Source: an uncultured Gammaproteobacteria bacterium (GTDB lineage Bacteria > Patescibacteriota > Patescibacteriia > UBA9934). Taken from it: a DNA stretch of 64,000 bases. The stretch spans positions 7,197 to 71,196 of the forward strand of contig CAZMTL010000003.1 in assembly GCA_964569575.1 (NCBI GenBank). The letters run 5' to 3'. The notes below the pieces were generated by a model. The model was not told the DNA's origin. It saw nothing but the letters and a program-made list of their open reading frames with translations, and did no database searches. Shown here piece after piece: positions 46,727 to 64,000 of the stretch (within the stretch, counting starts at the first letter, position 1; the number at the start of each line of letters is the position of its first letter). A program made the translations under genes and the position numbers.

Positions 46727-46879
46727 ATGCCGAAGAGAACGTTTCAGCCAAAAAAACGGCGTCGGGCAAAGCGGCACGGCTTTCGCACTCGGATGAAGAC
46801 AAAGACAGGGCGATCGACACTACAACGTCGTCGCGCTAAAGGACGAAAGCGTCTTGCAGTTGCTGCACGACCCCGATAA
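46727..46879 (+). CDS. rpmH: 50S ribosomal protein L34
   Basis: Manual translation gives [50 protein letters not shown]. It is absent from the ORF track because it is under 60 aa. Confidence 0.85.
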
Positions 46880-46919
46880 ACAAACGAGCCCTAGTGGCTC
46901 ATTTGTTTTTGTATAATAA

Positions 46920-47267: not shown

Positions 47268-47273
47268 TTAGGT

Positions 47274-47540
47274 ATGCCAACAGTAATTATTGGCAGAATA
47301 AGAAAGGCGTGGAGAAAGGTCGCGGCATTTCCGATAGTTATCTACCAAAAAACCCTATCGCCTGATCACGGACCGCTGAAGGCACTTTTCCCTTACGGCT
47401 ACTGTCGCTTTCATCCAACGTGCAGTGAATATACAAAGCAAACTATTTACAAAAGAGGCCTCACGATCGGAATCCTGAAAGGAAGTTGGCGCATTCTTCG
47501 TTGCAATCCATTCTCGAAAGGCGGAATCGATCCCGCATAA
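47274..47540 (+). CDS. yidD: membrane protein insertion efficiency factor YidD
   Basis: [39 protein letters not shown]. Confidence 0.8.
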
Positions 47541-47544
47541 AACA

Positions 47545-47575
47545 AAAGCAGCCCCGAAGGGCTGTCTTTTATTTC
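47545..47575. terminator. bidirectional terminator GCAGCCC-CGAA-GGGCTGT + TTTT
   Basis: Located between yidD and the convergent typA. No yidC follows. Confidence 0.6.
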
Positions 47576-49365
47576 TTTCCACTGCGCTTTCGGTCCGCTT
47601 CCGTCAAAAACTTCTTTCGGATACGTACAGATTGCGGCGTTGCTTCTACATATTCATCGTCACCAATGTATTCAAGTGCTCGCTCCAACGTCATGTCGAT
47701 TGGCGGCGTCAATTGAATTGAATCATCTGCACCGCTCGCTCGCATGTTCGTAAGCTGCTTCCCTTTTGTTGGGTTTACAGTCATTGATTCCTTCGAGCTC
47801 ATACCGATCACCATCCCTTCGTACACATCAACTCCAGGTCCAACGAACAACGTTCCTCGTTCCTGTAAGTTGTTAAGCGAGAAGGCGAGAGTCGTTCCGC
47901 CTACTCCCGAAATCATCGAACCGGTATTTCGTCGTTCAATTTCTCCAACGTACGGACCGTACTGCGCGAAGATGTGCGAAAGCGTTCCTTCTCCCTTTGT
48001 TGCGGTAACGAATTCAGTTCTAAATCCGAGCAATCCGCGTGTAGGAATGATGTATTCAAGTCGTGTAGACCCGTTCTCGCTTTGCATCTGCTTCATTTCC
48101 CCTTTTCGTTTTCCTAACCGTTCAATAATGGTTCCGGCAAAGGCATCTGGTAAATCGATGGTAACATTTTCGTACGGTTCCTGCTTTTCACCATTTTCTT
48201 CACGGAAGATTACCTGCGGCTGACTTACCTGAATTTCGTATCCTTCGCGTCGCATGGTTTCGATCAATACAGAAAGGTGCATTTCTCCGCGACCACTTAC
48301 TTTAAACATATCGGCAGAATCCGGAAACTCCACCTGCAAACCAACGTTCGTTTCAAGTTCGCGTTCTAGTCGTTCTCGAATCTGTCGAGAAGTCACAAGC
48401 GAACCTTCTTTACCGGCAAACGGAGAGTTGTTTACAAGGAAGTTCATAACAAGCGTAGGCGGATCGATTTTGATCGCTTCCAATGCTTCAGCATCAGCGT
48501 TTTCCGCAACCGTTTCACCTACGTTGATGTTTGGAATTCCAGCGATTGAAACAATGTCTCCAGAAAAGGCTTCCGTTACTTCAACTTTCGCTAATCCTTT
48601 TGAAGTAAGAATTTTGCTGATCTTGTGCTTTTCGCGTGTTCCATCAAGTTTGATGACGGTAACGGTTGAACCCGTCTTTAGCGTTCCTTCAAAGATTCGT
48701 CCAGTTGCAAGTCGACCAACGAAATCATCGTACCCAAGGTTAACGGGCTGAAATCGCAACGGCGCAGCAACATCGCTTTTTGCCGGAGGAACTTCTTTCA
48801 AAATCATATCAAACAACGGCTGCAAATCCTTTCCTTGATCGGTCGGCGAATTAACCGCAATTCCATCACGTGCAATCGCGTAGATATACTTAAATTCCAA
48901 CTGTTCTTCCGAAGCACCAAGTTCCACGAACAAGTCAAAAACCATGTTCAACACTTCGTCGGGTCGTGCCGTTGGCTTGTCGATTTTATTAATAACCAAA
49001 ATAGGCTTCAATCCAAGAGCAAGTGATTTTCGAAGCACGAACTTTGTTTGCGGCATCGGACCTTCGTACGCGTCCACCAACAAAAGTACAGAATCAACCA
49101 TACGCAACACACGTTCAACTTCCGAACCAAAGTCGGCGTGACCTGGGGTGTCGACGATGTTGATCTTGTCATCGCCAATCTGGATGGCAGTATTCTTGGC
49201 GTAAATAGTGATCCCACGTTCTTTTTCAAGATCGTTGCTGTCCATTACGCGCTCCTCAATAACGTCACGGTCAGAAAAAGTTCCTGACTGCTTCAGCATG
49301 GCGTCTACCAGGGTTGTTTTTCCGTGGTCAACGTGAGCGATAATGGCGATGTTTCGAAAATTCAT
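47569..49365 (-). CDS. typA: translational GTPase TypA/BipA
   Basis: NIAIIAHVDHGKTTLVD, DTPGHADF and NKID. The start was taken at the internal ATG. Confidence 0.9.
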   Translation of the reverse strand: MNFRNIAIIAHVDHGKTTLVDAMLKQSGTFSDRDVIEERVMDSNDLEKERGITIYAKNTAIQIGDDKINIVDTPGHADFGSEVERVLRMVDSVLLLVDAYEGPMPQTKFVLRKSLALGLKPILVINKIDKPTARPDEVLNMVFDLFVELGASEEQLEFKYIYAIARDGIAVNSPTDQGKDLQPLFDMILKEVPPAKSDVAAPLRFQPVNLGYDDFVGRLATGRIFEGTLKTGSTVTVIKLDGTREKHKISKILTSKGLAKVEVTEAFSGDIVSIAGIPNINVGETVAENADAEALEAIKIDPPTLVMNFLVNNSPFAGKEGSLVTSRQIRERLERELETNVGLQVEFPDSADMFKVSGRGEMHLSVLIETMRREGYEIQVSQPQVIFREENGEKQEPYENVTIDLPDAFAGTIIERLGKRKGEMKQMQSENGSTRLEYIIPTRGLLGFRTEFVTATKGEGTLSHIFAQYGPYVGEIERRNTGSMISGVGGTTLAFSLNNLQERGTLFVGPGVDVYEGMVIGMSSKESMTVNPTKGKQLTNMRASGADDSIQLTPPIDMTLERALEYIGDDEYVEATPQSVRIRKKFLTEADRKRSGKK

Positions 49366-49459
49366 AAAAGTATATTTGAAGGCGCAAGAATAGCACAAGC
49401 TGGCGACTTTGTAAATCTTTAAAGGCTAGTTTACCTCAGAAAATAACAGAATTTGCACG

Positions 49460-49705
49460 CTACCGCCTAATCTCAACCAGTTTTTTAGGGCTATTTACCC
49501 CTGTTTTAATGAAAATAAGACTCTTTGCTACGTCAAAATGAGCAGAAAGCACTTCAATTAACTCTTCGTTCGCTTTTCCGTCTCGAGCAGCGGCGCGCAG
49601 GGCGATGCGATAAGAATGTTCATCAATTTGTTCAATTCCAGGCTTTTTTGAATTCGGTCGAACGGTAATAGAGAGAATCATATATTCCAAAATTATTGAC
49701 AACAT
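49460..49705 (-). CDS. DUF167 (YggU-like) protein
   Basis: ITVRPNSKK...DGKANEELIEVLSAHF...KLVEI. Confidence 0.5.
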   Translation of the reverse strand: MLSIILEYMILSITVRPNSKKPGIEQIDEHSYRIALRAAARDGKANEELIEVLSAHFDVAKSLIFIKTGVNSPKKLVEIRR

Positions 49706-49747
49706 AGCAAAGATTCAGTATCCTCGCACGTCGTAGAGAGGTGAACG

Positions 49748-49921
49748 ATGGAAGAAGATGAGGAGTCGGATGAAGGGCAGGCGCCTCGCAGGCGAATGCC
49801 ATGCTTACTGGAAGAGAGTCACGACATCAGGAACGCCCAGTCTGCAGTGAATGTAGGAAGCGCCACAGCGGCGCAGCGAGAGCTTCTCGAGTGGTATCGT
49901 GAGGTTATGGGTGAACTGTGA
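49748..49921 (+). CDS. candidate small acidic protein (57 aa) with Shine-Dalgarno and strong terminator
   Basis: GAGAGGTG sits 6 nt upstream of the ATG. Translation gives MEEDEESDEGQAPRRR.... A GC hairpin terminator lies at 49927-49968. It is not in the ORF track. Confidence 0.3.
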   Translation: MEEDEESDEGQAPRRRMPCLLEESHDIRNAQSAVNVGSATAAQRELLEWYREVMGEL

Positions 49922-50008
49922 CAACGCGGGGCTCCGGCGAACATGTCGTCGGAGCCCCTATCATTTTCAAATAAACAAAAAAACGAGCTCAGGGCCCGTT
50001 TTTTTGTT

Positions 50009-51295
50009 CTACTTAACAATCTTTCCTTTCAAGAAATCAATCGTCTTTCGATTGGTCATCTGGTGCTTAACGTAATCTCGATACTGCGGATCGAACACAC
50101 GCTTTCGAGCATCCTCATTGTCTTTATATTGCTCGGCAACGCGATCAATTTCTGCATCCAATGTTTTTTCATCAATTTCGATCTTTTCTTTTGCAGCAAC
50201 TTCCTTCAATACAATCGCAACTTTGATTCGTTGAATGGCATTTGGGGTTAAATCAAGCTTTAATTCGGCCAACGACTTTCCGGACTGCTTCAAATATTCT
50301 TCAAAATCCCCACCTTGCTCAGTAATCTGATGTTTCATTTCATGCAACATCTTTTCAATTTCCTGATTTACCAACAAATCTGGGATTTTCTCGAACGTTG
50401 ATTTTTCAACAATCGCATCCAAAACCGCCTTGTCCTGGCGAACCGCTTCTTCGTGTTCATTTTCGCGCGTAAGATTTTCGTTCAGCTTCTGATCAAGTTC
50501 CTTGCGATCCTTCAATCCAACCGACTTCGCGAATTCGTCATTCATTTCTGGGGCATCCAATTTAAAAATCTCTTTCACGGCAACATCGAAATCAACTTTC
50601 TGATCTGCAAGATGTTTTTGGTAATGATCCTTCGGAAACTTCAGCGTGAACTGCTTCGACTCCCCTTCTTTCAGTCCAAGAAGTTCTTTTACAAATCCTT
50701 TTACGTAATGTTCTTCCCCTGTGTAAATTCCGTGGTCCTGACTCTCTCCGCCTTCAAGCACAACGCCGTCCTTCTTCATGCCAAGTGCAAGAACAACCTT
50801 GTCTCCAGCTTCAACGACTGACCCAGAATCTTTACGCACTTCCTTTGTCTGCATGTTGGCAAGATCTTTCAATGCGCGATCGATCATTTCTTTTGTAGGT
50901 TCAGTCGACTTCTTTTCAACTGACAGCTTCGAGTAATCTGCAAGCTTTGTTATCTTCGGGAAGAGGGCAACTTCCGCCGTGAACACAAGATCGTTTCCTG
51001 GAGCCATTTTTTCAACATTGAAGTACGGCTGACCAACAGTTTCCAAATCTTCCTCGATCATTGCTTTCAAAAAGTGGTCGCGGATCAATCCTTCAATAGC
51101 CGCTTCAAGCAACGGCATTTCGCCAACTCGACGCTTTACCGTTTCATAATCAGCCTTTCCTGGTCGGAAACCAGGAATTTTTGATGATTCCGCAAACTGT
51201 CCAGCAGCTTCTTTCATTCCAGCTTCAACCTCTGCGTGAGGAACAGTAATAGTGAGAGTGGCTTTGTTGTCTTTTGTTTCGATTTTGTATGGCAT
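50009..51295 (-). CDS. tig: trigger factor
   Basis: Three-domain trigger factor with an FKBP-type PPIase region. The start was taken at the internal ATG (MPYKIE). Confidence 0.85.
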   Translation of the reverse strand: MPYKIETKDNKATLTITVPHAEVEAGMKEAAGQFAESSKIPGFRPGKADYETVKRRVGEMPLLEAAIEGLIRDHFLKAMIEEDLETVGQPYFNVEKMAPGNDLVFTAEVALFPKITKLADYSKLSVEKKSTEPTKEMIDRALKDLANMQTKEVRKDSGSVVEAGDKVVLALGMKKDGVVLEGGESQDHGIYTGEEHYVKGFVKELLGLKEGESKQFTLKFPKDHYQKHLADQKVDFDVAVKEIFKLDAPEMNDEFAKSVGLKDRKELDQKLNENLTRENEHEEAVRQDKAVLDAIVEKSTFEKIPDLLVNQEIEKMLHEMKHQITEQGGDFEEYLKQSGKSLAELKLDLTPNAIQRIKVAIVLKEVAAKEKIEIDEKTLDAEIDRVAEQYKDNEDARKRVFDPQYRDYVKHQMTNRKTIDFLKGKIVK

Positions 51296-51389
51296 ATTGG
51301 GCGGAGTGTACGAAAAATAGGAGTGATTGTCAAAAGTCGCAAGCTTAAAATCAAGCAAATAAAAAAGAGAGCCCGCAGGCTCTTCTTTT

Positions 51390-53390
51390 TTACATAATGT
51401 TTGCAAGAACGATCAGGATAGCAACGATGTTCACAATTTTGATCATCGGGTTGATCGCAGGACCTGCAGTATCTTTGTACGGATCTCCCACCGTGTCTCC
51501 AGTAACCGCCGCTTCATGAGCAGGTGATTTCTTTCCACCGTAGTTTCCATCTTCAATATACTTCTTCGCATTGTCCCAAGCACCTCCTCCGGTTGTCATC
51601 GAAATGGCAAGGAAAAGTCCAGTAACAATCGATCCCATCAGCAATCCTCCCAACGCCGCTGGTCCAAGGAAGTATCCAACAAGGATCGGTACAACCACTG
51701 GAATAAGCGCAGGAACAATCATTTCGTTTAAAGCAGCCTTTGTAACGATGTCTACCGCTCGGCTGTAGTCAGGCTTCGCAGTTCCTTCCATGATTCCGTG
51801 AATTTCCTTGAACTGACGTCGTACTTCTTCCACAACCTTTCCAGCCGCCTTTCCAACCGCCTCCATTGCGTATGCAGAGAAGATGTATGGAAGCAGACCT
51901 CCGATAAATAGACCGACGATTACAAGTGGATCAGAAAGTGAGAAATCAACATCGATGTCTCGTAGAATCAATTCTTCTGTATAACTTGCAAACAATACAG
52001 TTGCGGCAAGTCCAGCAGAAGCAATCGCGTATCCTTTTGTAACGGCCTTTGTTGTGTTTCCAACAGCGTCAAGCGGGTCTGTTACTTCACTTCGAACCGA
52101 ACTTGGCAAATCAGCCATTTCGGCAATTCCGCCAGCGTTGTCGGTAATTGGACCATACGCATCAAGCGTTACAACCATACCGGTAAGTGAAAGCATCGAA
52201 GTCACAGCAAGAGCCGCTCCATAAATGCCTCCAAATTCGTACGCAAGCAAGATTCCACCAGCGATCACAAGTACCGGCAATACAGTTGAACGCATCGAAA
52301 GCGCTAGACCGGCGATAATGTTTGTTCCGTGTCCAGTCTGTGAAGCGGCTGCGATGTGACGAACAGGACCGTAAGCAGTCGAGGTGTAATATTCAGTAAT
52401 GACAACCATCAATGCAGTCACGACCAATCCGATAAGCAACGAAGCGAATACCGCATTTGTATCGATTCCAGCTACATCTGCAAGAAGGTATCGAGATGCG
52501 AAGTAGAACGCCACAGCCGAAACTAGTCCAGCTGCGATAAGTCCTTTATAAAGCGCGCCCATGATTGCTTTCGAACCAGTTCCAAGACGAATAAACTGAA
52601 CTCCAATCAATGTAGCGATAACCCCGATTGCTCCAATAGCAAGTGGGAAGGTAATGATCGCAGTAATATTTCCGAACAAAATCGATCCAAGAAGCATGGC
52701 TGCAACTGTCGAAACAGCGTATGTTTCGAACAAGTCAGCCGCCATTCCGGCACAGTCTCCAACGTTGTCTCCAACGTTGTCTGCGATAACGGCAGGGTTG
52801 CGAGGGTCATCTTCTGGAATTCCAGCTTCTACTTTTCCGACCAAATCTGCGCCAACGTCAGCGGCTTTTGTGAAAATTCCTCCACCAAGTCGAGCAAAAA
52901 CAGAGATAAGTGAACCTCCGAATCCAAGACCGATCAACGCATGCATGTCGCCTGTAAGAAGGTAAAGACCAGCAACTCCTAGAAGCCCAAGGGCAACAAC
53001 GATGATTCCTGTTACAGCACCACCGCGAACGGCAATGTTAAGAGCAGGCTTCATTCCAAGCTTTGCTGCTTCAGCCGTTCGTACATTGGCTCGTACCGAA
53101 ACAAGCATTCCAGTGTATCCAGCAAGACCAGAAAGGATCGCTCCAACAGCGAAACCAAGAGCAATTCCCCAGTCAACAAGTCCTAAAATAACGAACACAA
53201 CGGCACCGATAAGGGCAATAACACGGTACTGACGGTTCAAAAACGCATTCGCACCTTCCTGGATCGCAAGAGCGATACCAATCATCTTTCCTTCACCAGC
53301 TGGTTGTTGCATGATCCAGCGAATCATAAACGCGGTGTACACAAGTGCTACCGCTGCAACGATAATAGAGAGCAAGCTAATATCTGGCAT
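51390..53390 (-). CDS. hppA: membrane-bound H+(Na+)-translocating pyrophosphatase
   Basis: [27 protein letters not shown] and [13 protein letters not shown] motifs. Confidence 0.9.
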
Positions 53391-53605
53391 AGAGCCGTTT
53401 ACATAATAAATTAACAAGAAAAACGTGGTTATAATACGAATTCCATACAAACGTGTCAATGACAAAAAGACATTTTTCAATTGACGAAAAGCCAAAAAAA
53501 CGGTATTCTACCAAGGCCTAAACCGGCAAAAGTATTTCGTTAAAAGAATCGATTACACAAAAATTAGCAGGCTTAGGACTGGCTGGAATCCGTATTCTGG
53601 TCGCA

Positions 53606-54916
53606 TTGAAGCCATATATCCTAGGTGCAGGAAAAGCTGCATTTACACCGGTAAGAAGAATCGGACAAATTTTTTTGGACGGTTTTTTTGTACCCATCTA
53701 TCGAATCGCCTACACAATAAAGAAGCAATTTGATGCGTTCTGGCGACCGGCAAAGAATAAAATGATGGTATTCGTCACGAATCGTTACGCCGTTCACGTA
53801 GCAGTAGGTGTAATCGCCTGTGCGGTAGTGTTTTTAAATATTGGAACAAGTGAAGTACGTGCGGAGACATTTGGTGAAAAAAGCTTGATGTTCGCCATCG
53901 CGACAAACCAAGATGTCGAAATCATCGAAGAATTTGCCATCGACACAGAACGAGCAGAATACATGGCATTTTCGTACCGACCAGCCACAGCAATTTCGGC
54001 ATCTGGACGAGGCGGCACGGACTTCATAAACGAGGACACGGCGAGCCTGTCGGTAATCGGCGGTGGTGCACTGACGGCACCCACGATCTCGGAAGGAGCA
54101 GAATCAACCGCGCCACGAACAGAGGTCGAAACATATGCAGTCGCGCAAGGAGACACACTTTCAACCATCGCCGCAAAGTTCGGTATCTCGTTAAACACAC
54201 TTCTCTGGGCAAATAGTTTGACGGTGAATTCATCCATTAAGCCAGGAACCGAGCTAACCATCCTTCCGACAACAGGAGTTCAGCATAAAGTGGTGAGCGG
54301 AGACACCGTTTCAAAAATTGCGACAAAATATAAGGTAGAAGAAGCAGAAATTATCGCATTCAATCGACTCGCGAGCGCCGAAGACATCATTATCGGAGAA
54401 AGCTTGATCGTGCCGAACGGTGAAGTTCAGGCAGCGGCACCTGCTCGGCGACCAACAAGCGTAACCACCGTCTTTACACCGCCAGCAACGTCGTCATCGA
54501 TCCCAACAACCACAACGCCGTCAACGACAGCTCCGGCAACAGGCAGCGCATCAGGGTCAGGTGTAATGGTTTGGCCAACAGATCTGCGCGTGATCACTCA
54601 GTACTATGGATGGAGTCATACAGGGATCGATGTAGATTGTCACTTTACTCATGATAACTACGCAGCAGATTCAGGAGTAGTGCAATACGCGGGATGGAAG
54701 GGAGGATATGGGTATGCAGTCGAGATCAATCACGGGAACGGACTGGTGACCCGGTACGGCCATCACGCCTCGATGTATGTTTCTGCAGGCGAAACAGTAT
54801 CAAAAGGACAAGCGATAGGACGATGCGGAACAACTGGAATTTCGACAGGAACTCACCTTCACTTCGAAGTGATGTCCGGCGGAGCTTTCAAGAACCCGCT
54901 TGAGTACATTAGATAA
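53606..54916 (+). CDS. LysM-domain M23 metallopeptidase (peptidoglycan DD-endopeptidase)
   Basis: Two LysM repeats (YAVAQGDTLSTIAAKFGI; HKVVSGDTVSKIATKY). M23 motifs HTGIDV and GHHASMY...GTHLHFEV. Confidence 0.75.
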   Translation: MKPYILGAGKAAFTPVRRIGQIFLDGFFVPIYRIAYTIKKQFDAFWRPAKNKMMVFVTNRYAVHVAVGVIACAVVFLNIGTSEVRAETFGEKSLMFAIATNQDVEIIEEFAIDTERAEYMAFSYRPATAISASGRGGTDFINEDTASLSVIGGGALTAPTISEGAESTAPRTEVETYAVAQGDTLSTIAAKFGISLNTLLWANSLTVNSSIKPGTELTILPTTGVQHKVVSGDTVSKIATKYKVEEAEIIAFNRLASAEDIIIGESLIVPNGEVQAAAPARRPTSVTTVFTPPATSSSIPTTTTPSTTAPATGSASGSGVMVWPTDLRVITQYYGWSHTGIDVDCHFTHDNYAADSGVVQYAGWKGGYGYAVEINHGNGLVTRYGHHASMYVSAGETVSKGQAIGRCGTTGISTGTHLHFEVMSGGAFKNPLEYIR

Positions 54917-54956
54917 AGAACAAAGGGGCGAAAGCCTCTTTTTCTGTTGAGTGATA

Positions 54957-56483
54957 TTACTCAACAAGTTTCGGGCGATACTGCAGTGCTTCCGCAAGAT
55001 GCGAAACAGAAATAGATTCTATGTCATCCAAATCAGCAATTGTGCGAGCTACCTTCACGACTCGAGTGTAGGCACGTGCAGAAAGGTGTAGTCGTGCAAC
55101 GGCTTGTTTGAGCAGATCGAAACAATCAGCGGAAAGTGAACAGAATTCCGCTAAGTGCTTGCTCGTCAATTCCGAGTTAGAACAAATACCAAGCGACGCA
55201 TACCGTAAGCGTTGACGATTGACCGCATTCTGAACTCGAGCTCGAATCGAATCCGAATTTTCAACAGGCTGAGCATTAGTTAATTTATCGAAATCGACCC
55301 GAGGCACGTCGAGCGCTAAATCAATGCGATCAAGCAAGGGGCCCGAGATTTTTTGCTGGTAGCGATGAACCTGACTTGGCGTGCACTGGCATGCGCGCGT
55401 GGGTTCTGTGGCGTATCCGCACGGACAAGGATTCATTGCGGCAATCAGCATAAATTTAGCAGGAAATTCTAGTCGACCGGCCGCGCGAGAAATCGAAACG
55501 ATGCCATCTTCAAGTGGTTGACGCAAGTTCTCGATCGCGGTGCGTGGGAATTCTGGGAATTCATCCAAAAACAAAATACCCCGATGCGCCAACGAAACAT
55601 CGCCCGGCATCGGCCAAGTGCCTCCACCAATTAGTGCTACACTCGAACTAGAGTGATGCGGGGCACGAAACGGACGCACGCGCACCAGATTCGTTAACGG
55701 ACGCGAAGAAGAGATGGAAAGAATTTTGGTAATTTCGAGCGCTTCTTGAAAAGACAAATCTGGCAAAATAGAAGGTGTCGCACGAGCCAACATAGTCTTC
55801 CCGCTACCAGGAGGGCCCGTAAAAAGAATATTGTGACTACCGGCAGCCGCAATTTCGAGCGCACGTTTTGCCTGTTCCTGCCCCTTTACGTCTTCCATGC
55901 CAAACTGAGCTTTATGAGCCGAAAGCTTCTTGCGACTACGACGCGTAGGCATGACCGGTGCCTCGATAGTGCCATTTAAAAATTGAATCGCTTCCTGAAG
56001 AGTTGAAACAGGAACTACCCTTACACCTTTTACTAAAGCGGCCTCGTGCGCGCTTTCGCGAGGAACCATGATGGACTTAATGCCCTCGTCTCGAGCGAGA
56101 GCGGACGCGAGCAGAACGCTATTCGTTGGTCGTACATCGCCTTGTAGCGAAAGCTCGCCAACGATTAAGCACTCGCGTAATGCGTCCAGTCGCTGCAGCA
56201 CGCCTTCCGACGCCAAGATCCCGAGCGCAATGGCCAAATCAAATGCCGGTCCCTGCTTTTTAATATGCGCAGGAGCTAAATTGACCGTGACGCGTGTTCG
56301 CGGAAACGAAAATCCACAGTTCTTAATTGCCGCCCGAACGCGATCCCGCGACTCCGAAATAGCGGCATCCGGCAACCCGACAACTCTAAACGAAGGCAGC
56401 CCAGACGAAATATCTGTCTCAACTCGAATTAAATACGCTTCTAATCCAAAATGTGTCGCCGAGCGAATAAAAAAATCTCCCAT
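54957..56483 (-). CDS. YifB/ComM-family Mg-chelatase-like AAA+ ATPase
   Basis: Lon-like N domain plus Walker A FTGPPGSGKTMLA. Confidence 0.85.
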   Translation of the reverse strand: MGDFFIRSATHFGLEAYLIRVETDISSGLPSFRVVGLPDAAISESRDRVRAAIKNCGFSFPRTRVTVNLAPAHIKKQGPAFDLAIALGILASEGVLQRLDALRECLIVGELSLQGDVRPTNSVLLASALARDEGIKSIMVPRESAHEAALVKGVRVVPVSTLQEAIQFLNGTIEAPVMPTRRSRKKLSAHKAQFGMEDVKGQEQAKRALEIAAAGSHNILFTGPPGSGKTMLARATPSILPDLSFQEALEITKILSISSSRPLTNLVRVRPFRAPHHSSSSVALIGGGTWPMPGDVSLAHRGILFLDEFPEFPRTAIENLRQPLEDGIVSISRAAGRLEFPAKFMLIAAMNPCPCGYATEPTRACQCTPSQVHRYQQKISGPLLDRIDLALDVPRVDFDKLTNAQPVENSDSIRARVQNAVNRQRLRYASLGICSNSELTSKHLAEFCSLSADCFDLLKQAVARLHLSARAYTRVVKVARTIADLDDIESISVSHLAEALQYRPKLVE

Positions 56484-56518
56484 ACAAAAGTAAGCGGGAG
56501 TATTTAATCGTCCAAACT

Positions 56519-56968
56519 CTACAAACGAGTCGGTTCTTTTTTAGTATAGACCAAAAGCAAAATCGCGCCAGTCACAATGAGGATATCTGCCAAATTAATT
56601 GCCGATCGTCCAAAGAAAAGAAGGTAATCGGTTGTAAATCCGTTCACAAGTCGGTCAACCAAGTTATCCAACGCTCCAAAAAAAATCATCGAGGCAAACC
56701 CGCTACGCAAAGGCGCTTTCCTGAACTCGCGCAGAATGAAGTACCCTAGCAAACAGAGTAAGGCCAAGCTAATCGGTACAACGACAAAGAGTGGAGCGGG
56801 AATACTAAAAGCGATTCCTGGGTTTTTGTAGAGAAAGATTTGAAACAATCCCCCGCGTTGCGTTTCGTTTCCTTCCAGTAATTGCAGAGCGAGTACCTTA
56901 AAAACAATATCAGCCGCGGTAATCACGACTGATAGTGTAAGGAAAAAGTAAAAATACTTCTGACGCAT
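56519..56968 (-). CDS. lspA: lipoprotein signal peptidase II
   Basis: FGALDNLVDR and NLADILIVTGAILLL. 4 TM helices. Confidence 0.7.
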   Translation of the reverse strand: MRQKYFYFFLTLSVVITAADIVFKVLALQLLEGNETQRGGLFQIFLYKNPGIAFSIPAPLFVVVPISLALLCLLGYFILREFRKAPLRSGFASMIFFGALDNLVDRLVNGFTTDYLLFFGRSAINLADILIVTGAILLLVYTKKEPTRL

Positions 56969-56970
56969 GA

Positions 56971-57369
56971 TTAAAGTTCCTGTGTGAGTGTTTTTTTGCT
57001 GGCAACAGTGCTTGTCGAAGTCGGACGAGCACGCAAACGATCTTCGCCAATTGGTTCGTTTGTGTACTTGTCGATGCCGTAAGTACCTTTTTGAATACGT
57101 TCAAGCGCAGATTCTACATCTCGCAGCTCTTTTTCCAGCTCCTGTTCTAAAGAGAGGTTGTTGCTGTAATCTGCGATTTCCACAGCGTTCTCGTCTTCGT
57201 CGTCGCCGTATTCTGGAAAGCGAGCATCGTAATCTTCTTCGCTGGCAGAAATATTCTTCTTCGCAAAACGCGCGAGTGAAGTTGTGAGTCTTGTCTGTTC
57301 TTCTTCTAGTTTTGCACGCATTTCATCCAAAAACTCCTGACTGTACGAACCTGATGATTTTTTTGTCAT
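56971..57369 (-). CDS. DksA/TraR-family regulator (YteA-like, no Cys4 finger)
   Basis: GTYGIDKYTNEPIGEDRLRARP C-terminal motif and a coiled-coil N terminus. Confidence 0.5.
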   Translation of the reverse strand: MTKKSSGSYSQEFLDEMRAKLEEEQTRLTTSLARFAKKNISASEEDYDARFPEYGDDEDENAVEIADYSNNLSLEQELEKELRDVESALERIQKGTYGIDKYTNEPIGEDRLRARPTSTSTVASKKTLTQEL

Positions 57370-57940
57370 ATAACGTAATTACTTACAGAAAGTCTAGAGC
57401 AATTAACGGAAGAAAACAAGCAAAGGGCTGAAATGAGGAAAAAAGTGAGCAAATTGTTGTATAGAAAAAAGGAGCGCGGTTGTTGACAGGCATCTTTGTG
57501 GTTGTCCTGTACGGCTGCGCTCCTTACGAGCGACTTTTTGAAGGACACCGTTCATTGAAGGCTGGGCTCTTGAGACACCCCGATCTCTCGAGAACTCAAC
57601 CTTCAGTCGGCGTCGACTTTGAAAAAGTCTTTTGACTCTGACCGCTCTACCTCGTCCGGGATTGCACGGCGTGCAAAGAACGTGTGTGAACGACGCGGTG
57701 GATCCATGGTTCGCTTCCTTTCCCCCGAACTGAAGCGAGAAAACAAGATGGAGTACAGCGGTGAGATAATTCCCAGAGGTGGGGCTCTGGAAAATTTCCC
57801 CTGAGTCATGTTCGATCAATAATTGATCGAACGACGGGATTGTTGAAGGAGCGATCGAACTTGTAACTACATTGTATGATGGTGAACACTTAATGTCAAC
57901 AACGTATTAGTACCGAATTTATTGAGTAAAACGCGAAAAC

Positions 57941-58011
57941 TGTGGATAAGATTTTAAACTGTGGATAAAGAATATGTGGATAACTCTTAGTTCATGCACT
58001 GTTTATCCACA
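57941..58011. promoter_or_regulatory. cluster of four perfect DnaA boxes: TGTGGATAA at 57941-49, 57960-68 and 57975-83, and TTATCCACA at 58003-11
   Basis: All four are exact 9-mer consensus. Boxes 3 and 4 form an inverted pair. An AT-rich tract lies at 57884-57940. Confidence 0.65.
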
Positions 58012-58023
58012 GGCTGCGTGAAC

Positions 58024-59244
58024 TTAATAACAGAGCCGAATGCCATGTTTGTGCACGCGAATCTGTTCAAATAACAAAGGAAAAGCAGAGAATGACCCAA
58101 TGTCTGTTGATGAATCTAGGCGTAAAGTCGCGACCGACGGATACAAAAACAGTTCATTCGTTTTTACTGGGCATTTCGAAAAAGTGCTAGGCAGGCGTGG
58201 ACTTTCAGAATTCTTCCGCTCGATCCGAAGAAGTGTCTCGCCCGAAGCTCGCTCGAGCCGCAAACTAACAATCAACTCTTCGCTTGCGAAGGTGGTTCCA
58301 TAATATTCATCCGTGGTCTCGACAGTTACATCCCGAGTCTCCCCAATCGACAATTCTTGATAAAGTGAACCATCCGGCAGTGATGCGGAAGTACTGGTAA
58401 TAGAAAGAAGTCCAAAAACCTGTCGTCCAAGGCTGCCGAGCGACTCCAAATCCAGGTCAGAGCTAAAACGCACCTCGGTAATGTAAGAATTATTCAACGT
58501 ATATTCTGAAATAAGGCTTTCTTCCGAAATTTGATCAAAAAAGGCATTTAGTTGAGCCTGTGTATCGAGCTGCTCAGTGAACGTATCAAGTCCAACAACC
58601 TGCAGTGGAGAAAACGCCATAATCGGCGTCGAACCCTCGGGGAACAGATTAGTAGCGATAAAATCAGAGCGATGCTTTAGGAAAAGCGCGCCATGACGAT
58701 GAGACATGCGCGAAACCTCGAGATGATCAGCGAATTGAATAAAAAGCCCCGCATATCCAGGCAAAACACCTCGCGCGCCTAGGCGTTGTCCACCTTCTTC
58801 GGTAGCTAGATCATTCAGGGTCACAAGCGTACGTTTCTTCGATCGATAAACAGAGAGACGATCCGAAAGCTCATTTTCGAGCGTTTCATTCCCGATTCGT
58901 CCAACAGAAACACCAATTAAATCAGTCGAATCATAATAAAGGACCACATCCCCTTTTGAATGAGTGAGCAACTGCTCAAGCGTCCAAGGGTGCTGCGGAA
59001 GCAATGCTTGTGACCCGAGCTGCTGCAATAAAAAAGTCATATTCTTCCCAGTACGCGGGAATTCGATGGCATATTCCGTTGTGCTCGGATACGTGACTCT
59101 AGCCACAGAAGAAAGTGTAATAACACGGTAAACGCTCCACAAAACAAGAAAACTAAACAAGCAAATAACAAACATCCAAACAACCCGCCAGGATTTCCGG
59201 CGGGTGTTGGATGCATTCAAAGGGATGTTTAGATTGGTGTGCAT
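58024..59244 (-). CDS. hypothetical membrane-anchored protein (406 aa)
   Basis: The N-terminal TM anchor is VVWMFVICLFSFLVLWSVY. No motif is recognised. Confidence 0.4.
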   Translation of the reverse strand: MHTNLNIPLNASNTRRKSWRVVWMFVICLFSFLVLWSVYRVITLSSVARVTYPSTTEYAIEFPRTGKNMTFLLQQLGSQALLPQHPWTLEQLLTHSKGDVVLYYDSTDLIGVSVGRIGNETLENELSDRLSVYRSKKRTLVTLNDLATEEGGQRLGARGVLPGYAGLFIQFADHLEVSRMSHRHGALFLKHRSDFIATNLFPEGSTPIMAFSPLQVVGLDTFTEQLDTQAQLNAFFDQISEESLISEYTLNNSYITEVRFSSDLDLESLGSLGRQVFGLLSITSTSASLPDGSLYQELSIGETRDVTVETTDEYYGTTFASEELIVSLRLERASGETLLRIERKNSESPRLPSTFSKCPVKTNELFLYPSVATLRLDSSTDIGSFSAFPLLFEQIRVHKHGIRLCY

Positions 59245-59246
59245 GG

Positions 59247-61478
59247 TTATTTTGAACTTTGCGGTCGACGTGCAGGACGCTGATCGCGTCGTGGAGGTCG
59301 AGAAGAGCCAGAAGGCTTTCGTTCTCCGCTTGGCGCTGTTTGAGCTTTGGCTTTCATTTCGTCGGTGTAGACATTACCTTCCGCCTGCTTCATAGAAAGG
59401 TTGATACGTCCCATATCATCGATTTCGATCACCTTTACATGAACCTTTTGATCTATTTTAACAATATCGTTCACATTTTCAACTCTCCAAGGAGCAAGCT
59501 CCGAAATGTGAACCATTCCGTCTTTACCTGGAAGGACTTGAACGAAGGCACCAAAGTCCATAATTCTTACAACCGTTCCTTCAAAAAGCTCTCCTTTTTG
59601 AATCTCGCGAGTCAAATTATGAATCCAGTCATACGCCTTCGAACCACTTTCTCCATCTGTGGCTGTAATCATCACCAGTCCGTCTTGTTCGATGTCGATG
59701 GCTTGAACGCCAGTCTTCTCAATGATTTCGTTGATCATCTTTCCGCCCGGTCCGATTACTTCGCGAATTTTATCTGGGTGAATCTTGAGTTTAAGAATAC
59801 GTGGAGCAAACTTTGAAAGTTCGGCTCGCGGTTCCGCGATAACGGCGCGCATTTGCTTCAAAATTTCCAAACGAGCATTTTTCGATTGTCGCAAAATCTC
59901 TTCCATCATTTCCTGCGTGATTCCGTCGGTCTTCGTGTCCATCTGGATCGCTGTAATTCCTGCGTCTGTTCCAGTTGCTTTGAAGTCCATTCCACCCTTT
60001 CCGTCTTCCAAATCTTGAATGTCGGTAATGACCTTCCAATCGTTACCAATCGAGGCAAGTCCGATAGCGATCCCGGCAACCGGCGCACTGATTGGGACTC
60101 CTGCATCCATCAACGCAAGTGTTGAAGCGCACGTAGAAGCCATCGAGCTAGAACCGTTCGAGTTCATTGTTTCCGAAACCACACGAACCGCATAAGGAAA
60201 ATCTTCTTTCGAAGGAATCACCGGAATCAACGCTTTTTCCGCAAGCGCTCCATGACCGATTTCGCGTCGTCCTGCGCCTCGCAGCGGTTTCGCTTCACCA
60301 ACCGAAAACGGAGGGAAGTTGTAGTGGTGCATGTAGCGCTGTTCACCAACGGTTTCCATTCCATCAAGTGTCTGCTGATCTCCCGGCGCACCAAGTGTAC
60401 AAACGGAGAGGATGTGCGTTTCACCTCGATTGAAATGTCCGCTTCCGTGAACACGTGGCAACAATCCAACTTCGATTTCAAGATCTCGAACCTCTTCAAT
60501 CCCTCGTCCGTCCACGCGCTTCCCTTCTTCCAAAATCATTCGCGAAATTTCGTGTTGAACAAAGTCGTAAATCAAGTTCGTTCCAATTTTCAATTTATCT
60601 TCTGCGATTCCCTGTGAAAGAAGATGCTGTTGCAAGTCCGCTTTCAACTGTTCCTTCGCGTCATTCCGTTCTTGCTTCGTCGCCTTTGGGGCAGCAAAGA
60701 ACAGTTCCTGAATGCGTCCAATCATGAAGTCTTTCGAAAGCGCTTCGATACGTTCTTGTTCTTCTGTTGGAGTAGAAACAAGAATCGCTTTTTCTTTTCC
60801 AAGTTCGCCGCGAACGTGTTCGATAAGAGCGATGACAGGTGCAAGCTCTGCACGCCCTCGAGCAAATGCCTCAGCGATCACTTCTTCCGGAACCTGGTTC
60901 GCTCGCGCTTCGATCATACAAATCTTTTCGGTTGTTCCGGCAAGATCTAAATCAAACGAAGTAGATGTTCGTTGCGTGTAGGTTGGATTAAACACCCACT
61001 CATCTTCAATCTTACTCACGCGCACAGCAGCGATTGGACCACTCCAAGGAATGTTGCTCATGTGAAGCGCGCAAGAAGCGCCGATCAACCCAAGAATATC
61101 CGGATCATGTTCTTCGTCGAAAGAAAGTACGGTACAAATAATCTGAACTTCATTTCGAAGTGAATCATCGAACAGCGGTCGAATCGCACGATCAATAAAT
61201 CGACTTACAAGCACCGCTTCGTCAGTCGGTCGTCCTTCGCGTTTAATAAATCGCGAACCCTTAATACGTCCCGCCGCGTACAGCTTTTCCTCGTAATCAA
61301 CCATCAAAGGGAAAAAATTCATCCCTTCACGTTTTTCCTTGCTCATTACGGCCGTTACAAGAACGATTGTGTCACCCATGCGCACAGTGATGGCCGCATT
61401 TGCTTGCGCACCAAATCGACCACTTTCAATAACCAATTCCTTTCCAGCGAATTGAGTTGTAAATCTCTTAATATCCAT
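59247..61478 (-). CDS. pnp: polyribonucleotide nucleotidyltransferase (PNPase)
   Basis: Two RNase PH domains, KH and S1 domains. Confidence 0.9.
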   Translation of the reverse strand: MDIKRFTTQFAGKELVIESGRFGAQANAAITVRMGDTIVLVTAVMSKEKREGMNFFPLMVDYEEKLYAAGRIKGSRFIKREGRPTDEAVLVSRFIDRAIRPLFDDSLRNEVQIICTVLSFDEEHDPDILGLIGASCALHMSNIPWSGPIAAVRVSKIEDEWVFNPTYTQRTSTSFDLDLAGTTEKICMIEARANQVPEEVIAEAFARGRAELAPVIALIEHVRGELGKEKAILVSTPTEEQERIEALSKDFMIGRIQELFFAAPKATKQERNDAKEQLKADLQQHLLSQGIAEDKLKIGTNLIYDFVQHEISRMILEEGKRVDGRGIEEVRDLEIEVGLLPRVHGSGHFNRGETHILSVCTLGAPGDQQTLDGMETVGEQRYMHHYNFPPFSVGEAKPLRGAGRREIGHGALAEKALIPVIPSKEDFPYAVRVVSETMNSNGSSSMASTCASTLALMDAGVPISAPVAGIAIGLASIGNDWKVITDIQDLEDGKGGMDFKATGTDAGITAIQMDTKTDGITQEMMEEILRQSKNARLEILKQMRAVIAEPRAELSKFAPRILKLKIHPDKIREVIGPGGKMINEIIEKTGVQAIDIEQDGLVMITATDGESGSKAYDWIHNLTREIQKGELFEGTVVRIMDFGAFVQVLPGKDGMVHISELAPWRVENVNDIVKIDQKVHVKVIEIDDMGRINLSMKQAEGNVYTDEMKAKAQTAPSGERKPSGSSRPPRRDQRPARRPQSSK

Positions 61479-61613
61479 AGTACATAAATGTTTCGGTTCG
61501 AATCGGAAGATCGCTCAGTTTTGAATGAATCAAAACAAGATCTCGACGGCTCGAACCGAATAGAATTAATAAATGAACCAGCCCTGCGGTCGCGTAACCG
61601 CAGAAAAGAGCAT

Positions 61614-62150
61614 CTATTCCGACTTTGTTTTTTTGGAAGCTGTACGCTTTCGATCAGAAATCAAAAACGTTTTTCGATTGTTGGAAAGGTTTGTGTAAAG
61701 ATCAGCTGATTCGGCCAAAATGCCCGAAGTCGATTCGCGGAACGAAGCAACATGGAAGATCCTTCCGTGCGAACGCACGTAGTCCCCAAGCGGAACGAAG
61801 TCGCCGTCTCCAGAAACCAGCACTACCACGTCCAACATGCTAAGCGAGCGCACGACATCGATGGTCAACCCAACATCCCAATCCCCTTTCTTGGTACCAG
61901 AATCGAACTCGAGCAAGTCTTTCGAAATCACCTCAATCCCATTTGTCTCAAGCGCATCAAAAAAGGCTTCCTCCTCTCCACCTTTTGTAGAGATAGTATA
62001 CGCCATCGCACGAATTAATTGAGCATCCCCTACCGTTTCGCGAACAATCGCTGGAAAATTTACTTTACTTTGAAAAAGGTTTCGTGCGCTGTAGTACATG
62101 TTCTGTACGTCGATAAATACACCGACACGCCGTCCATTTGTTAAAATCAT
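61614..62150 (-). CDS. NYN-domain (LabA-like) protein
   Basis: VGVFIDVQNMYY...VVLVSGDGDFVPL. Confidence 0.6.
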   Translation of the reverse strand: MILTNGRRVGVFIDVQNMYYSARNLFQSKVNFPAIVRETVGDAQLIRAMAYTISTKGGEEEAFFDALETNGIEVISKDLLEFDSGTKKGDWDVGLTIDVVRSLSMLDVVVLVSGDGDFVPLGDYVRSHGRIFHVASFRESTSGILAESADLYTNLSNNRKTFLISDRKRTASKKTKSE

Positions 62151-62194
62151 AGTTGTATAAAAAGAACAAAAGCCCGCAAATGCGGGATTTTGTA

Positions 62195-62467
62195 TTACTT
62201 AGCTGTGCGCAACTTAAGCTCTTCTACAAGAGTGTCGTGTGCTGCTTTATTTTCACGTTCCAAATACTTCAGAAGGCGTCGTCGTTCTGTCACCTTCTTT
62301 AGAAGACCTCGTCGAGAGCTGAAATCTTTCTTGTGCTGACGCAAGTGCTGAGTAAGGTACTTGATTTCAGCGGTCAAGATAGCGATCTGCACTTGTGGCG
62401 AACCTGTATCCGACTCGTGAGTTTTAAATTTACTAATAATGCGCTGTTTTGATGCTTTATCTAGCAT
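62195..62467 (-). CDS. rpsO: 30S ribosomal protein S15
   Basis: HESDTGSPQVQIAILTAEIKYLTQHL...RRGLLKKV. The start was taken at the internal ATG (MLDKASKQ). Confidence 0.85.
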   Translation of the reverse strand: MLDKASKQRIISKFKTHESDTGSPQVQIAILTAEIKYLTQHLRQHKKDFSSRRGLLKKVTERRRLLKYLERENKAAHDTLVEELKLRTAK

Positions 62468-62682
62468 AGAAATGAATGTTCGTCTGATGGTCTTAGAAAA
62501 ACGTTGCGCAACGTAAATCCATGGCCAACAGCAATAAATTATGAAGCTAAAATAAGCCAAATCAAGAATAATGTCAATATAAACCATCAAAAACCCCTAA
62601 CTCAATCTCAAGCCCTGATATCTCTCCACCCCTAGTCCCTAACCCCTACAACCTATTCCTCCCAAGCGCCCTCGAAGAAACC

Positions 62683-62711
62683 TTGACAGAAGTGCGAAAT
62701 TCCGCTATATT
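62683..62711 (+). promoter_or_regulatory. sigma70-like promoter TTGACA-17 bp-TATATT
   Basis: A perfect -35 and a 17-bp spacer are seen in sequence. Confidence 0.5.
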
Positions 62712-62717
62712 CAGCGC

Positions 62718-62875
62718 ACTTTCATCTTCCTGGTCCGCCCGGCCAAACCAGCTTCCTCTCGTGCTGGCCGGGTGAGATCGGGAACCTCTCAGACCGCCCT
62801 CTTCGCGCAACTCGATTCGATAACGTACCCACCGTGGATATCGAGCCTGTGCGTAAGAGAGGCGGTCTTTTGATT
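62718..62875 (+). ncRNA. candidate small RNA or leader (about 155 nt) running from the promoter to a long hairpin terminator (GACCGCCCTCTT...AAGAGAGGCGGTC + TTTT)
   Basis: Promoter, internal stems and a terminal stem plus T-run define the unit. Its identity is unknown. Confidence 0.3.
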
Positions 62876-62896
62876 TGTGTCGTATAATATATTTGT

Positions 62897-63814
62897 ATGG
62901 CATCAAACATGGAAAAATGGATCATCCAATTTCTGGAATACCTAGAAGTCGAACGCGGTCGTTCGGTACGAACGGTGCGAAACTACGATTTCTACCTTCG
63001 TCGATTTTCGGAATGGGCAAACAACCCATCCCCCGCTTCGATTTCGCAAGAAATGGTCCACAAATATCGTCTTCACCTAAACCGCGACATCGAAGGACGC
63101 GAAGATGTGAATTTAAAAAAGAGCACCCAAAACTACCACCTTATCGCTCTGAGAGCATTTTTAAAATATCTTCAAAAGATCGACGTCAAAACAATGGCGC
63201 CCGAAAAAATTGAACTCGCAAAACAAACATCACGCAAAGTAGAATTTTTAGAAACAGAAGAACTTGCGCGACTGTTGAGCGAACCAAAAAAAGTCGGAGG
63301 ACTCGTCGGTCTGCGCGACACCGCCATTTTGCAATTACTCTTTTCGACCGGCCTACGCGTCTCCGAACTAGCGTCCTTAAAGATTGAGCAGATAAATTTG
63401 AAGCGCGATGAATTCACAGTGAAAGGAAAAGGGAGCAAGCACCGCATCGTATTCCTTTCGGAAGAAGCGCGCAAAGCATTGAAAGCGTACCTCGATACAC
63501 GAAAAGACGTTTCTCCATTCCTGTTCGTTAGTCACGACCGTGCAAAAGGCTCACGCGACTCGGGAGCAATCACGCCCCGCACCATTCAACGCATCGTAGA
63601 AAAATACGCGCTCGAAGCAGGAATCACAAAACGCATCACGCCTCACACCATCCGCCACACATTCGCCACAGACTTGCTGCGCAACGGTGCAGACATTCGT
63701 TCGGTCCAAGAAATGCTCGGTCACGAATCGATCACTACAACTCAAGTCTACACACACGTGACAAACAAACACCTAAAAAACATCCACAAAAAATTCCACT
63801 CGCAAGGTGAATAA
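62897..63814 (+). CDS. tyrosine recombinase XerC/XerD
   Basis: HTIRHTFATDLLRNGADIRSVQEMLGHESITTTQVYTHV. TATAAT lies 8 nt upstream of the ATG. Confidence 0.8.
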   Translation: MASNMEKWIIQFLEYLEVERGRSVRTVRNYDFYLRRFSEWANNPSPASISQEMVHKYRLHLNRDIEGREDVNLKKSTQNYHLIALRAFLKYLQKIDVKTMAPEKIELAKQTSRKVEFLETEELARLLSEPKKVGGLVGLRDTAILQLLFSTGLRVSELASLKIEQINLKRDEFTVKGKGSKHRIVFLSEEARKALKAYLDTRKDVSPFLFVSHDRAKGSRDSGAITPRTIQRIVEKYALEAGITKRITPHTIRHTFATDLLRNGADIRSVQEMLGHESITTTQVYTHVTNKHLKNIHKKFHSQGE

Positions 63815-63839
63815 AGCTTGCGAACATCACGAGCACTGT

Positions 63840-63940
63840 GAAGTGATCTCTCATCTCGCGCGAGCTCGAGAGATCTCTCGGCGAAATTCAAAACACGTTT
63901 CCCCTCCTTCTCAGATCCACAAGGAGGGGCTAGGGGTGGT
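63840..63940. repeat. GC-rich palindromic repeat element, copy C, plus adjacent palindrome gatctctc...gagagatc
   Basis: ggcgaaattcaaaacacgtttcccctccttctcagatccacaaggagggg matches the reverse complement of copies A and B. Confidence 0.6.
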
Positions 63941-64000
63941 TCTGCTTTTATCGAATGTGAACGCGCCGCGCAAAGTCGATTAACGCTGGATCCCGGATCA

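Follow-up and report, generated by a model that had tools for sequence, protein, structure and literature searches.

DnaA-box clusters outside the replication origin

In Bacillus subtilis, clusters of DnaA boxes located outside the replication origin (oriC) bind DnaA stably, regulate their neighbours (sda upwards, ywlC and yydA downwards), and together restrain initiation (PMC2533591, PMC3245932). These DnaA-box clusters (DBCs), namely yqeG-sda, ywlC-ywlB, yydA-yycS, ywcI-vpr, gcp-ydiF, and thdF-jag, are the closest precedent for the element discussed here, a "distal" cluster of four exact DnaA boxes lying upstream of a candidate RNA gene, at some distance from dnaA, in contig CAZMTL010000003.1 (the whole stretch analysed, 64 kb in length, is hereafter called the window). 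Like the B. subtilis DBCs, the distal cluster is intergenic and origin-proximal, has at least four close consensus boxes and a value above the same affinity threshold, and precedes a promoter whose gene could be controlled by DnaA; besides, this genome resembles B. subtilis in having a bipartite oriC of the Bacillus type and, within the limits of the window, in the absence of a SeqA/Hda-type context. It differs from them in that the downstream gene would be a large structured non-coding RNA (ncRNA), that the site is locked to this gene clade-wide with a fixed spacing, and that DnaA binding is here a prediction. On the basis of the DNA sequence and its conservation, we lean towards the view that the boxes form a Bacillus-type DBC outside oriC, which would couple the transcription of a new ncRNA to DnaA.

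Other described systems show more limited likenesses. As with datA of Escherichia coli, the distal site is a high-affinity box cluster away from oriC that could hold DnaA, but datA has five boxes and promotes IHF-dependent ATP-DnaA hydrolysis, whereas the distal site stands in a promoter-upstream position. The core of the E. coli DnaA-reactivating sequences DARS1 and DARS2 comprises three boxes, the first being opposed to the other two, an arrangement found here and in those relatives assigned below to class A; however, the opposed boxes are separated by 19 bp instead of 5 bp, and sister lineages have no opposed pair. Consensus boxes are also shared with the basal unwinding system (BUS) of oriC, made of tandem boxes and DnaA-trios, but the distal site has neither a trio array nor a strongly AT-rich element, and the BUS of this genome lies in the dnaA-dnaN spacer. 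Finally, CcnA, an origin-located cell-cycle ncRNA of Caulobacter crescentus, is likewise an ncRNA gene whose control region is reported to involve the cell-cycle/replication machinery (PMC8959179); the organism is unrelated and the likeness concerns the kind of gene and its control. A literature search returned no mention of DnaA boxes together with Patescibacteria.

Four exact boxes upstream of a candidate RNA gene

The distal cluster is found in the gap 57370-58023, bounded by two open reading frames (ORFs) of the minus strand. A first-pass annotation, made from the sequence alone, had described this gap as gene-free and devoid of any convincing ORF; there is indeed no credible protein ORF in it, but it does harbour the RNA gene. 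The same annotation had pointed to four exact boxes within 71 bp, three direct and one inverted, which is borne out at 57941-58011. The features of the gap and its two borders are as follows:

58024-59244, minus strand: 406-aa ORF, last gene of the pnp unit, whose stop codon abuts box 1
58003-58011, plus strand: DnaA box 1, an exact 9-mer reading TGTGGATAA in the RNA sense (minus strand)
57975-57983, minus strand: DnaA box 2, an exact 9-mer, TTATCCACA in the RNA sense
57960-57968, minus strand: extra DnaA box, an exact 9-mer present in this genome only, without counterpart in relatives
57941-57949, minus strand: DnaA box 3, an exact 9-mer 34 nt downstream of box 2 and codirectional with it
57871-57899, minus strand: sigma-70-type promoter, with -35 TTGACA (57899-57894), a 17-nt spacer, and -10 TACAAT (57876-57871)
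57465-57864, minus strand: candidate ncRNA gene of about 400 nt, with promoter, terminator, and covariation
57465-57525, minus strand: intrinsic terminator, stem GGAGCGC...GCGCUCC (57523-57471) followed by U6 (57470-57465)
56971-57369, minus strand: DksA/TraR-like gene (132 aa, without cysteine) downstream of the RNA; its homologues are named DksA/TraR and some match PF01258

Five exact TTATCCACA/TGTGGATAA 9-mers occur in the window, four of them in the distal cluster, with start-to-start spacings of 19, 15, and 28 nt, and the fifth at 46570, upstream of dnaA. The shuffle expectation is 0.33 exact boxes per 64-kb window, and five copies were reached in none of 100 shuffles. Boxes with one mismatch are not enriched over the whole window (16 versus 11.6 expected) and are concentrated at 46520-46606 and in the dnaA-dnaN spacer. 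Within the distal cluster, boxes 1 and 2 constitute an inverted pair, TGTGGATAA-N19-TTATCCACA in the RNA sense, of which box 1 is the distal partner and starts 12 nt past the stop codon of the 406-aa ORF, and box 3 is the counterpart of the third box of the relatives.

Stable DnaA binding can be predicted by the Ishikawa A-value, the product of box density and affinity, for which a threshold of 0.3 has been set (PMC2533591); it amounts to 0.77 for 57941-58011. DBCs are defined by at least four closely clustered boxes with A > 0.3 and by an intergenic position near but outside oriC. The distal cluster combines its four boxes and this A-value with an intergenic location, being flanked by the 406-aa ORF and the RNA gene, and its distance is 11.5 kb to dnaA and 13 kb to the origin unwinding module described below. 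In addition, the DnaA protein encoded in the window retains, when aligned to 1J1V, 6/6 of the base-contacting residues of E. coli DnaA domain IV (R399, P423, D433, H434, T435, and H439), and TTATCCACA is therefore its expected target.

Structure and identity of the RNA

The promoter, detected on the minus strand by a promoter scan, shows 11/12 consensus matches and sits inside the tract that the first-pass annotation had singled out as AT-rich; transcription would start at about 57864. Of the 32 distinct RNA loci scanned, 28 have a TTGAC -35 and a TAnnnT -10 at the corresponding position. At the other end, the long imperfect hairpin previously noticed at about 57471-57525 is real (-22.2 kcal/mol, z = -3.5), can be lengthened by two A-U pairs to 57525-57469, and is followed by U6 on the minus strand, and the relatives possess a hairpin and a U-run at the equivalent place. 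The 21-nt perfect palindrome also exists, at 57811-57831 rather than at 57815-57835. All three features belong to a conserved structured RNA gene, of which the hairpin is the terminator, the palindrome the first helix, and the AT-rich tract the promoter.

From its 5' end, the RNA consists of a conserved segment GCUCCUUCAACAAUCCCGU, the first hairpin (57810-57832), a long-range helix, a 3' hairpin domain (57542-57653), and the terminator. Covariation was evaluated on 24 sequences, aligned with MAFFT independently of any structure, with slid partners and 500 shuffles as controls. The 32 predicted pairs are paired at 93.6%, versus 41-55% for the slid controls, compensatory changes are seen in 21 of them, and 0/500 shuffles reach the observed values. 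For the 3' hairpin, compensatory changes affect 17/19 pairs (93% paired versus 36-49% in controls), and covariation is also recorded for the long-range helix (CCGCUGUACU with GGUAGAGCGG) and for the palindrome of the first hairpin (GTTCGATCAATTATTGATCGAAC, which becomes GCCCGA...TCGGGC in relatives). The stretch between promoter and terminator folds better than shuffles on either strand, and the folding energy is uninformative as to which one is transcribed (z = -4.5 versus -4.1); the window minus strand is retained because of the frequent G-U pairs, the promoter, and the terminator.

The 3' domain (57542-57653, minus strand) displays a nearly invariant internal loop (5'-GAGUU / 5'-AGAACCC) in an otherwise freely covarying hairpin. 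This loop resembles a loop-E/sarcin-ricin-type motif and is found at a different position within the RNA of distant relatives.

Regarding its identity, Rfam 15 gave no relevant match at the gathering score for the window and six relatives, and, in relaxed searches bringing the total to 18 relatives, none at E <= 10 for the window gap or at E <= 5 for 12 further loci. The gap stretch has no tRNA or transfer-messenger RNA (tmRNA) match, and ARAGORN found no tmRNA in it. RNase P RNA, tmRNA, signal recognition particle (SRP) RNA, 6S RNA, and the T-box were compared with the RNA by eye, and this informal check revealed none of their signature motifs, such as CR-I/CR-V of RNase P, the acceptor/T-arm of tmRNA, or helix 8 of SRP RNA. 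Partial resemblances to known large RNAs (GGGGAAAUUUCCCG and AGAACCC) fall in local hairpins backed by covariation, not in a P4-like long-range helix. A 5' leader of dksA was rejected as the main reading in view of the RNA's own terminator and of a good promoter seen by eye, in several relatives, between this terminator and dksA; the dksA-like gene apparently has its own promoter. The RNA is consequently treated as an undescribed family, on the grounds of Rfam, of our own inspection, and of a literature check that was not exhaustive.

Conservation of the boxes in relatives

Relatives were retrieved with the DksA-like protein as a query, its homologues sharing 50-73% identity and some of them being named Candidatus Uhrbacteria or Patescibacteria. 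The first sample comprised the contigs of six long relatives with a flank of ±10 kb, and a metagenome scan with the DksA alignment provided 80 more loci. All six relatives share a block made of xerC, rpsO, NYN, pnp, an ORF of 356-417 aa, a gap of 540-610 bp, dksA, lspA, and comM, with rnpA or dnaA-dnaN 6-10 kb further on in 3/6. Their gaps have the same composition: after the upstream stop comes, within about 10 nt, TGTGGATAA-N19-TTATCCACA with both boxes exact, then a third box 35-44 nt after box 2 (as TTATCCACA, TTATTCACA, TTATACACA, or TTTTCCACA), a TTGACA-17-TAnAAT promoter 81-92 nt after box 2, and a conserved sequence closing with a hairpin and a U-run. In L081, L087, and L088, dnaA does not occur within 10 kb downstream of the dksA gene, and the boxes are still present.

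In the wider sample, about 40 Uhrbacteria-like loci were found by iterated nhmmer searches and a covariance model of the 3' domain to carry the RNA in front of dksA, and tblastn confirmed throughout that pnp and a variable ORF lie upstream and lspA downstream. Among the matches listed for loci fetched through ComM (about 50% identity, from other Patescibacteria and many other phyla), only L010 carries the RNA, and no comparable box clusters were found. This L010 locus (CAZVBP010000018.1) is labelled 'uncultured Gammaproteobacteria' and contains the pnp-ORF-RNA-dksA-lspA-comM block, so that its label is probably wrong.

The 32 distinct RNA-bearing loci (300 kb) contain 69 exact boxes, of which 65 lie at most 260 nt upstream of the RNA and three of the remaining four upstream of dnaA. 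The density of exact boxes is thereby 7.8 per kb upstream of the RNA versus 0.014 per kb elsewhere, which is about a 570-fold difference. At least two exact boxes are present in 28/32 loci, and box 1 (TGTGGATAA) is exact in 30/32. Two layouts can be distinguished. In class A, box 1 and an opposed partner 28 nt downstream of it are followed by a direct third box; the N19 spacer of the pair is invariant in length in all class A relatives although its sequence varies, box 1 starts 4-13 nt past the upstream stop codon in every locus, and the distance from box 1 to the -35 is 109-112 nt in 13/14 loci measured and 120 in L084. In class B, two direct TGTGGATAA boxes are 31 nt apart, and box 1 is 122-125 nt from the -35 in 11/14 loci (103, 120, and 120 in the others). 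The sequence of about 45 nt between boxes and promoter is not conserved, and in several relatives it is interrupted, after box 3 and before the -35, by an additional hairpin terminator. In more distant loci, the RNA domains are rearranged and the flanking palindromes differ, but boxes, promoter, a terminator, and the GTTCTTT..ACAA 5' end are all retained. The conservation in relatives proposed as a check by the first-pass annotation thus turned out to be strong, in about 30 related genomes, and this pattern of sequence conservation argues that the distal boxes are under purifying selection.

Further motifs accompany the boxes in the upstream regions of L081, L083, L134, L156, L157, and others, and at 57880-57888 in the window. 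A second conserved motif, TGAACAC(A), is located downstream of the boxes, and in class A the promoter spacer contains its reverse complement, GTGTTCA. Class B promoters contain TTGAC-N5-GTCAA, and in more distant loci two 23-bp palindromes (TTGTATACACTAGTCTATACAA) flank the boxes.

A proposed DnaA-linked RNA promoter and its alternatives

Read in the RNA sense, the locus is organized as a stop codon, TGTGGATAA-N19-TTATCCACA, one or two direct boxes, the promoter, the structured RNA, and the dksA-like gene. In a model of DnaA-dependent transcription, bound DnaA would set the output of the RNA promoter, and the RNA level would track the amount or the nucleotide state of DnaA, that is, the replication status. 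DnaA occupancy, the direction of the regulation, the transcription start, and the action of the RNA are the parts of this model that we infer. Repression or damping is favoured over activation because the promoter is already near consensus. DnaA could form a filament that starts from the strong boxes and grows in the direction of the promoter; in class A, a box-like TGTGTTCAA (6/9 matches) occurs inside the promoter spacer. As side effects, read-through from the pnp unit might be blocked, and some DnaA might be held 11-13 kb from the origin. A more ambitious proposal, which we put forward as tentative, is that a previously undescribed family of large structured RNAs (about 330-400 nt) extends across Uhrbacteria-like Patescibacteria, invariably placed between the pnp unit and a dksA-like gene, with its promoter hard-wired to DnaA through perfect boxes at fixed spacing.

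Several observations weigh against a control of the RNA promoter by DnaA. Direct repression is not obvious, since the boxes, positioned at about -80 to -150, stay clear of the core promoter. The layout varies by subclade, with an inverted pair, two direct boxes, or a third type flanked by palindromes, the spacing varies by class, and this variation fits the notion that any strong DnaA site will do, as for titration. L010 is one RNA locus without an exact box upstream. The additional motifs and palindromes suggest another lineage-specific regulator or weak DnaA sites. Finally, compact genomes put elements close together, which makes adjacency alone weak evidence.

The best surviving alternative, which we nevertheless judge unlikely, is a pure titration or inactivation site of the datA or B. 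subtilis DBC[yydA-yycS] type, restraining re-initiation, next to which the RNA gene would be incidental. The four perfect boxes with the above A-value at 11.5-13 kb from the origin speak for such a site; in B. subtilis, initiation is under the control of origin-proximal clusters of this type, which should also occur in bacteria without SeqA and Hda, and high affinity is kept here while the layout differs between subclades. However, the Bacillus clusters adjoin different genes in each species, whereas the present one is locked to the RNA promoter down to a DksA divergence of about 52%, its spacing is nearly constant within a class (most loci within 3-4 nt), and the boxes remain in the three relatives without dnaA in the 10 kb downstream of dksA. 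Control of the RNA promoter is favoured over pure titration because of these features, namely one promoter, a near-constant spacing per class across the clade, and the retention of the boxes in these three relatives.

Less probable still is a DnaA roadblock or insulator placed after the last stop of the pnp unit, which would keep read-through out and leave the 5' end of the RNA defined. DnaA-box complexes are known to block RNA polymerase at asnC/dnaA in E. coli. The close distance between box 1 and the upstream stop in every class A locus, the fact that no terminator was seen in the window from the stop codon (58024) to the RNA promoter, and the hairpin terminator added by several relatives between box 3 and the -35 all speak for this role, but the relatives that already have such a hairpin retain the boxes, and neither an inverted pair nor a conserved N19 spacer would be necessary.

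The first-pass annotation had also raised a datA/DARS-like locus. This holds in the broader sense of a non-origin DnaA regulatory site whose boxes are conserved in about 30 genomes, but not for the DARS core spacing, and a DARS-like site converting ADP-DnaA into ATP-DnaA appears very improbable: the class A orientation does reproduce the core pattern of a single box opposed to a codirectional pair, but boxes I and II, 5 bp apart in DARS, are here at an invariant 19 bp, class B consists of two direct boxes without opposed pair, and this system is so far of the E. coli type, DARS2 requiring IHF and Fis.

Even less credible is a functional origin or second unwinding site at the distal boxes, considered in the next section.

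Position of the chromosomal origin

The dnaA region contains two relevant elements:

44803-44868, minus strand: origin unwinding module in the dnaA-dnaN spacer, with boxes TTATCCGAG (44868-44860) and CTGTACACA (44859-44851), CCCC (44850-44847), and trios (44846-44826)
46520-46606, no strand assigned: DnaA-box cluster between dnaA and rpmH, with one exact and three one-mismatch boxes

The trios of the unwinding module read TTA CTA TTA CTA CTG TAT CTA (lower strand 3'-AAT GAT AAT GAT GAC ATA GAT-5'), after which the sequence is 85% AT up to dnaN. According to the BUS rule, at least three DnaA-trios (3'-NAN-5', consensus GAT) should lie within 16 bp of a correctly oriented box (PMC8287927); when the 64 kb were scanned accordingly, the dnaA-dnaN spacer ranked first with four consensus trios. 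The corresponding spacer of L084 contains TTATCCACG, CTGTCCACA, tgCCC, and TAC TGT TAC TAC, that of L086 has the same layout, and the box-to-trio offsets of 13 and 4 nt are identical in the window, L084, and L086 (modules at 44803-44868, 17945-17990, and 17922-17965, respectively). The two tandem spacer boxes of the window have three mismatches each, the strict rule of at most two mismatches thus applying in L084 and, by homology alone, in the window. Besides, 44803-44842 is, with its 85% AT, among the four AT-richest 40-mers of the window. On the other side of dnaA, the boxes at 46570-46606 reach A = 0.80, and counterparts of these boxes precede dnaA in both L084 and L086. The earlier description of the dnaA-proximal boxes as fewer and degenerate is not supported by this standard metric (0.80 versus 0.77 for the distal cluster). 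The 46520-46606 cluster would represent the upstream half of a bipartite origin and/or a site of dnaA autoregulation.

Strand composition was then considered through the skew at third codon positions (GC3 skew, plus strand). Per gene, it is mostly between -0.4 and -0.7 over 1-44792, whichever the strand of the gene, with few exceptions found mainly in a GC-rich stretch at 26-31 kb, and it jumps to about -0.1 at dnaA and beyond. After pooling, it amounts to -0.477 ± 0.011 (1-44792), -0.093 ± 0.026 (45027-57400), and -0.193 ± 0.035 (58024-64000), and a change-point of the all-sites skew falls at 41.2 kb. The cumulative GC skew proposed as a check by the first-pass annotation has no clean minimum at dnaA in the window, but the GC3 skew does break at dnaN|dnaA (44793-45026) and not at the distal site: at 57.9 kb no change of skew is seen in the window, and in the six relatives (±10 kb) the skew sign is equal on both sides of the homologous gap. 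In L084 and L086, the two relatives whose sequence extends to dnaA and dnaN, the skew flips sign exactly between these genes (-0.06 to +0.16 and -0.19 to +0.21). The right arm of the window lacks the positive skew expected right of an origin and its left arm is extreme, whereas the relatives are mild and symmetric; this asymmetry could be due to a chimeric join in the dnaA/dnaN region or to an unusual replication pattern. It does not restore the case for a distal origin, since the skew stays flat and weakly negative to the same extent on either side of the distal boxes.

Around the distal boxes, at most one consensus trio is present, and it is not conserved. Three NAN triplets in a row do lie within 16 bp of box 3 (57941-57949); such a bare run is expected by chance, and the six relatives do not conserve it. 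The adjoining stretch 57884-57940, earlier likened to an unwinding element, is 65-70% AT and falls outside the 25 AT-richest 40-nt windows. The distal site hence shows no trio array, no strongly AT-rich element, and no skew switch. The idea that it is the functional origin, for which one could invoke four perfect boxes with a mildly AT-rich stretch beside them, a box orientation towards this stretch like that of R1 beside the E. coli unwinding element, the three formal NAN triplets near box 3, and the missing clean minimum at dnaA, is hardly tenable against a pooled GC3 skew of the same sign on both sides (versus a step from -0.48 to -0.09 at dnaA|dnaN), four consensus trios in the dnaA-dnaN spacer, in a layout conserved in three genomes, and an AT content of 85% there, the distal stretch being a conserved promoter. 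Judged from these sequence features, the chromosome origin is a Bacillus-type bipartite oriC around dnaA, whose elements flank this gene and are conserved, and not the distal boxes.

Genomic context

The window carries PBP1A, dnaN, dnaA, then rpmH-rnpA-yidD on the other strand, typA, tig, an H+-pyrophosphatase, an M23/LysM peptidase, comM, lspA, and dksA, followed by the gap, the 406-aa ORF, pnp, an NYN-domain gene, rpsO, and xerC, a gene order that is typical of Patescibacteria. The 406-aa ORF has no Pfam match and evolves fast: a homology search with it returned itself alone, and its counterparts at the same place in relatives, 24-31% identical, were identified by tblastn. Such an ORF is always present between pnp and the boxes (356-417 aa, 22-32% identity), without a Pfam family, and its stop abuts box 1 in all class A loci. 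The four zinc-finger cysteines (GTYGIDKYTNEPIG...) are missing from the DksA/TraR-like protein of the window, which remains below Pfam significance, in contrast to many of its homologues. A GC-rich island (26000-30000; 55-58% versus about 46%) shows almost no skew inside the strongly skewed arm and holds a 783-aa ORF (26505-28856, plus strand) without Pfam match, and no rRNA match was obtained for it; this island may be recently acquired DNA.

Implications

Bacteria of the Candidate Phyla Radiation are mostly uncultured, and to our knowledge almost nothing is known about their replication control or the roles of their ncRNAs. For this clade, the origin can be placed at a bipartite oriC of the Bacillus type, whose DnaA-trio module occupies the dnaA-dnaN spacer, and the distal cluster serves as a warning that perfect DnaA-box clusters can mislead origin predictors. 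DnaA would have a second, deeply conserved chromosomal target outside the origin, in front of what appears to be a well-supported new structured RNA for which DnaA is the sole regulatory input visible so far. If the coupling of the RNA promoter to DnaA is true, this RNA would be an output of the DnaA regulon and thus a replication- or cell-cycle-coupled RNA, and, DksA being its constant partner, its target might be RNA polymerase or RNA turnover. Its gene neighbours point to RNA polymerase/DksA, PNPase, and the adjacent 406-aa protein as candidate partners. The locus would thereby offer a concrete and testable link between replication initiation and an RNA-based function.

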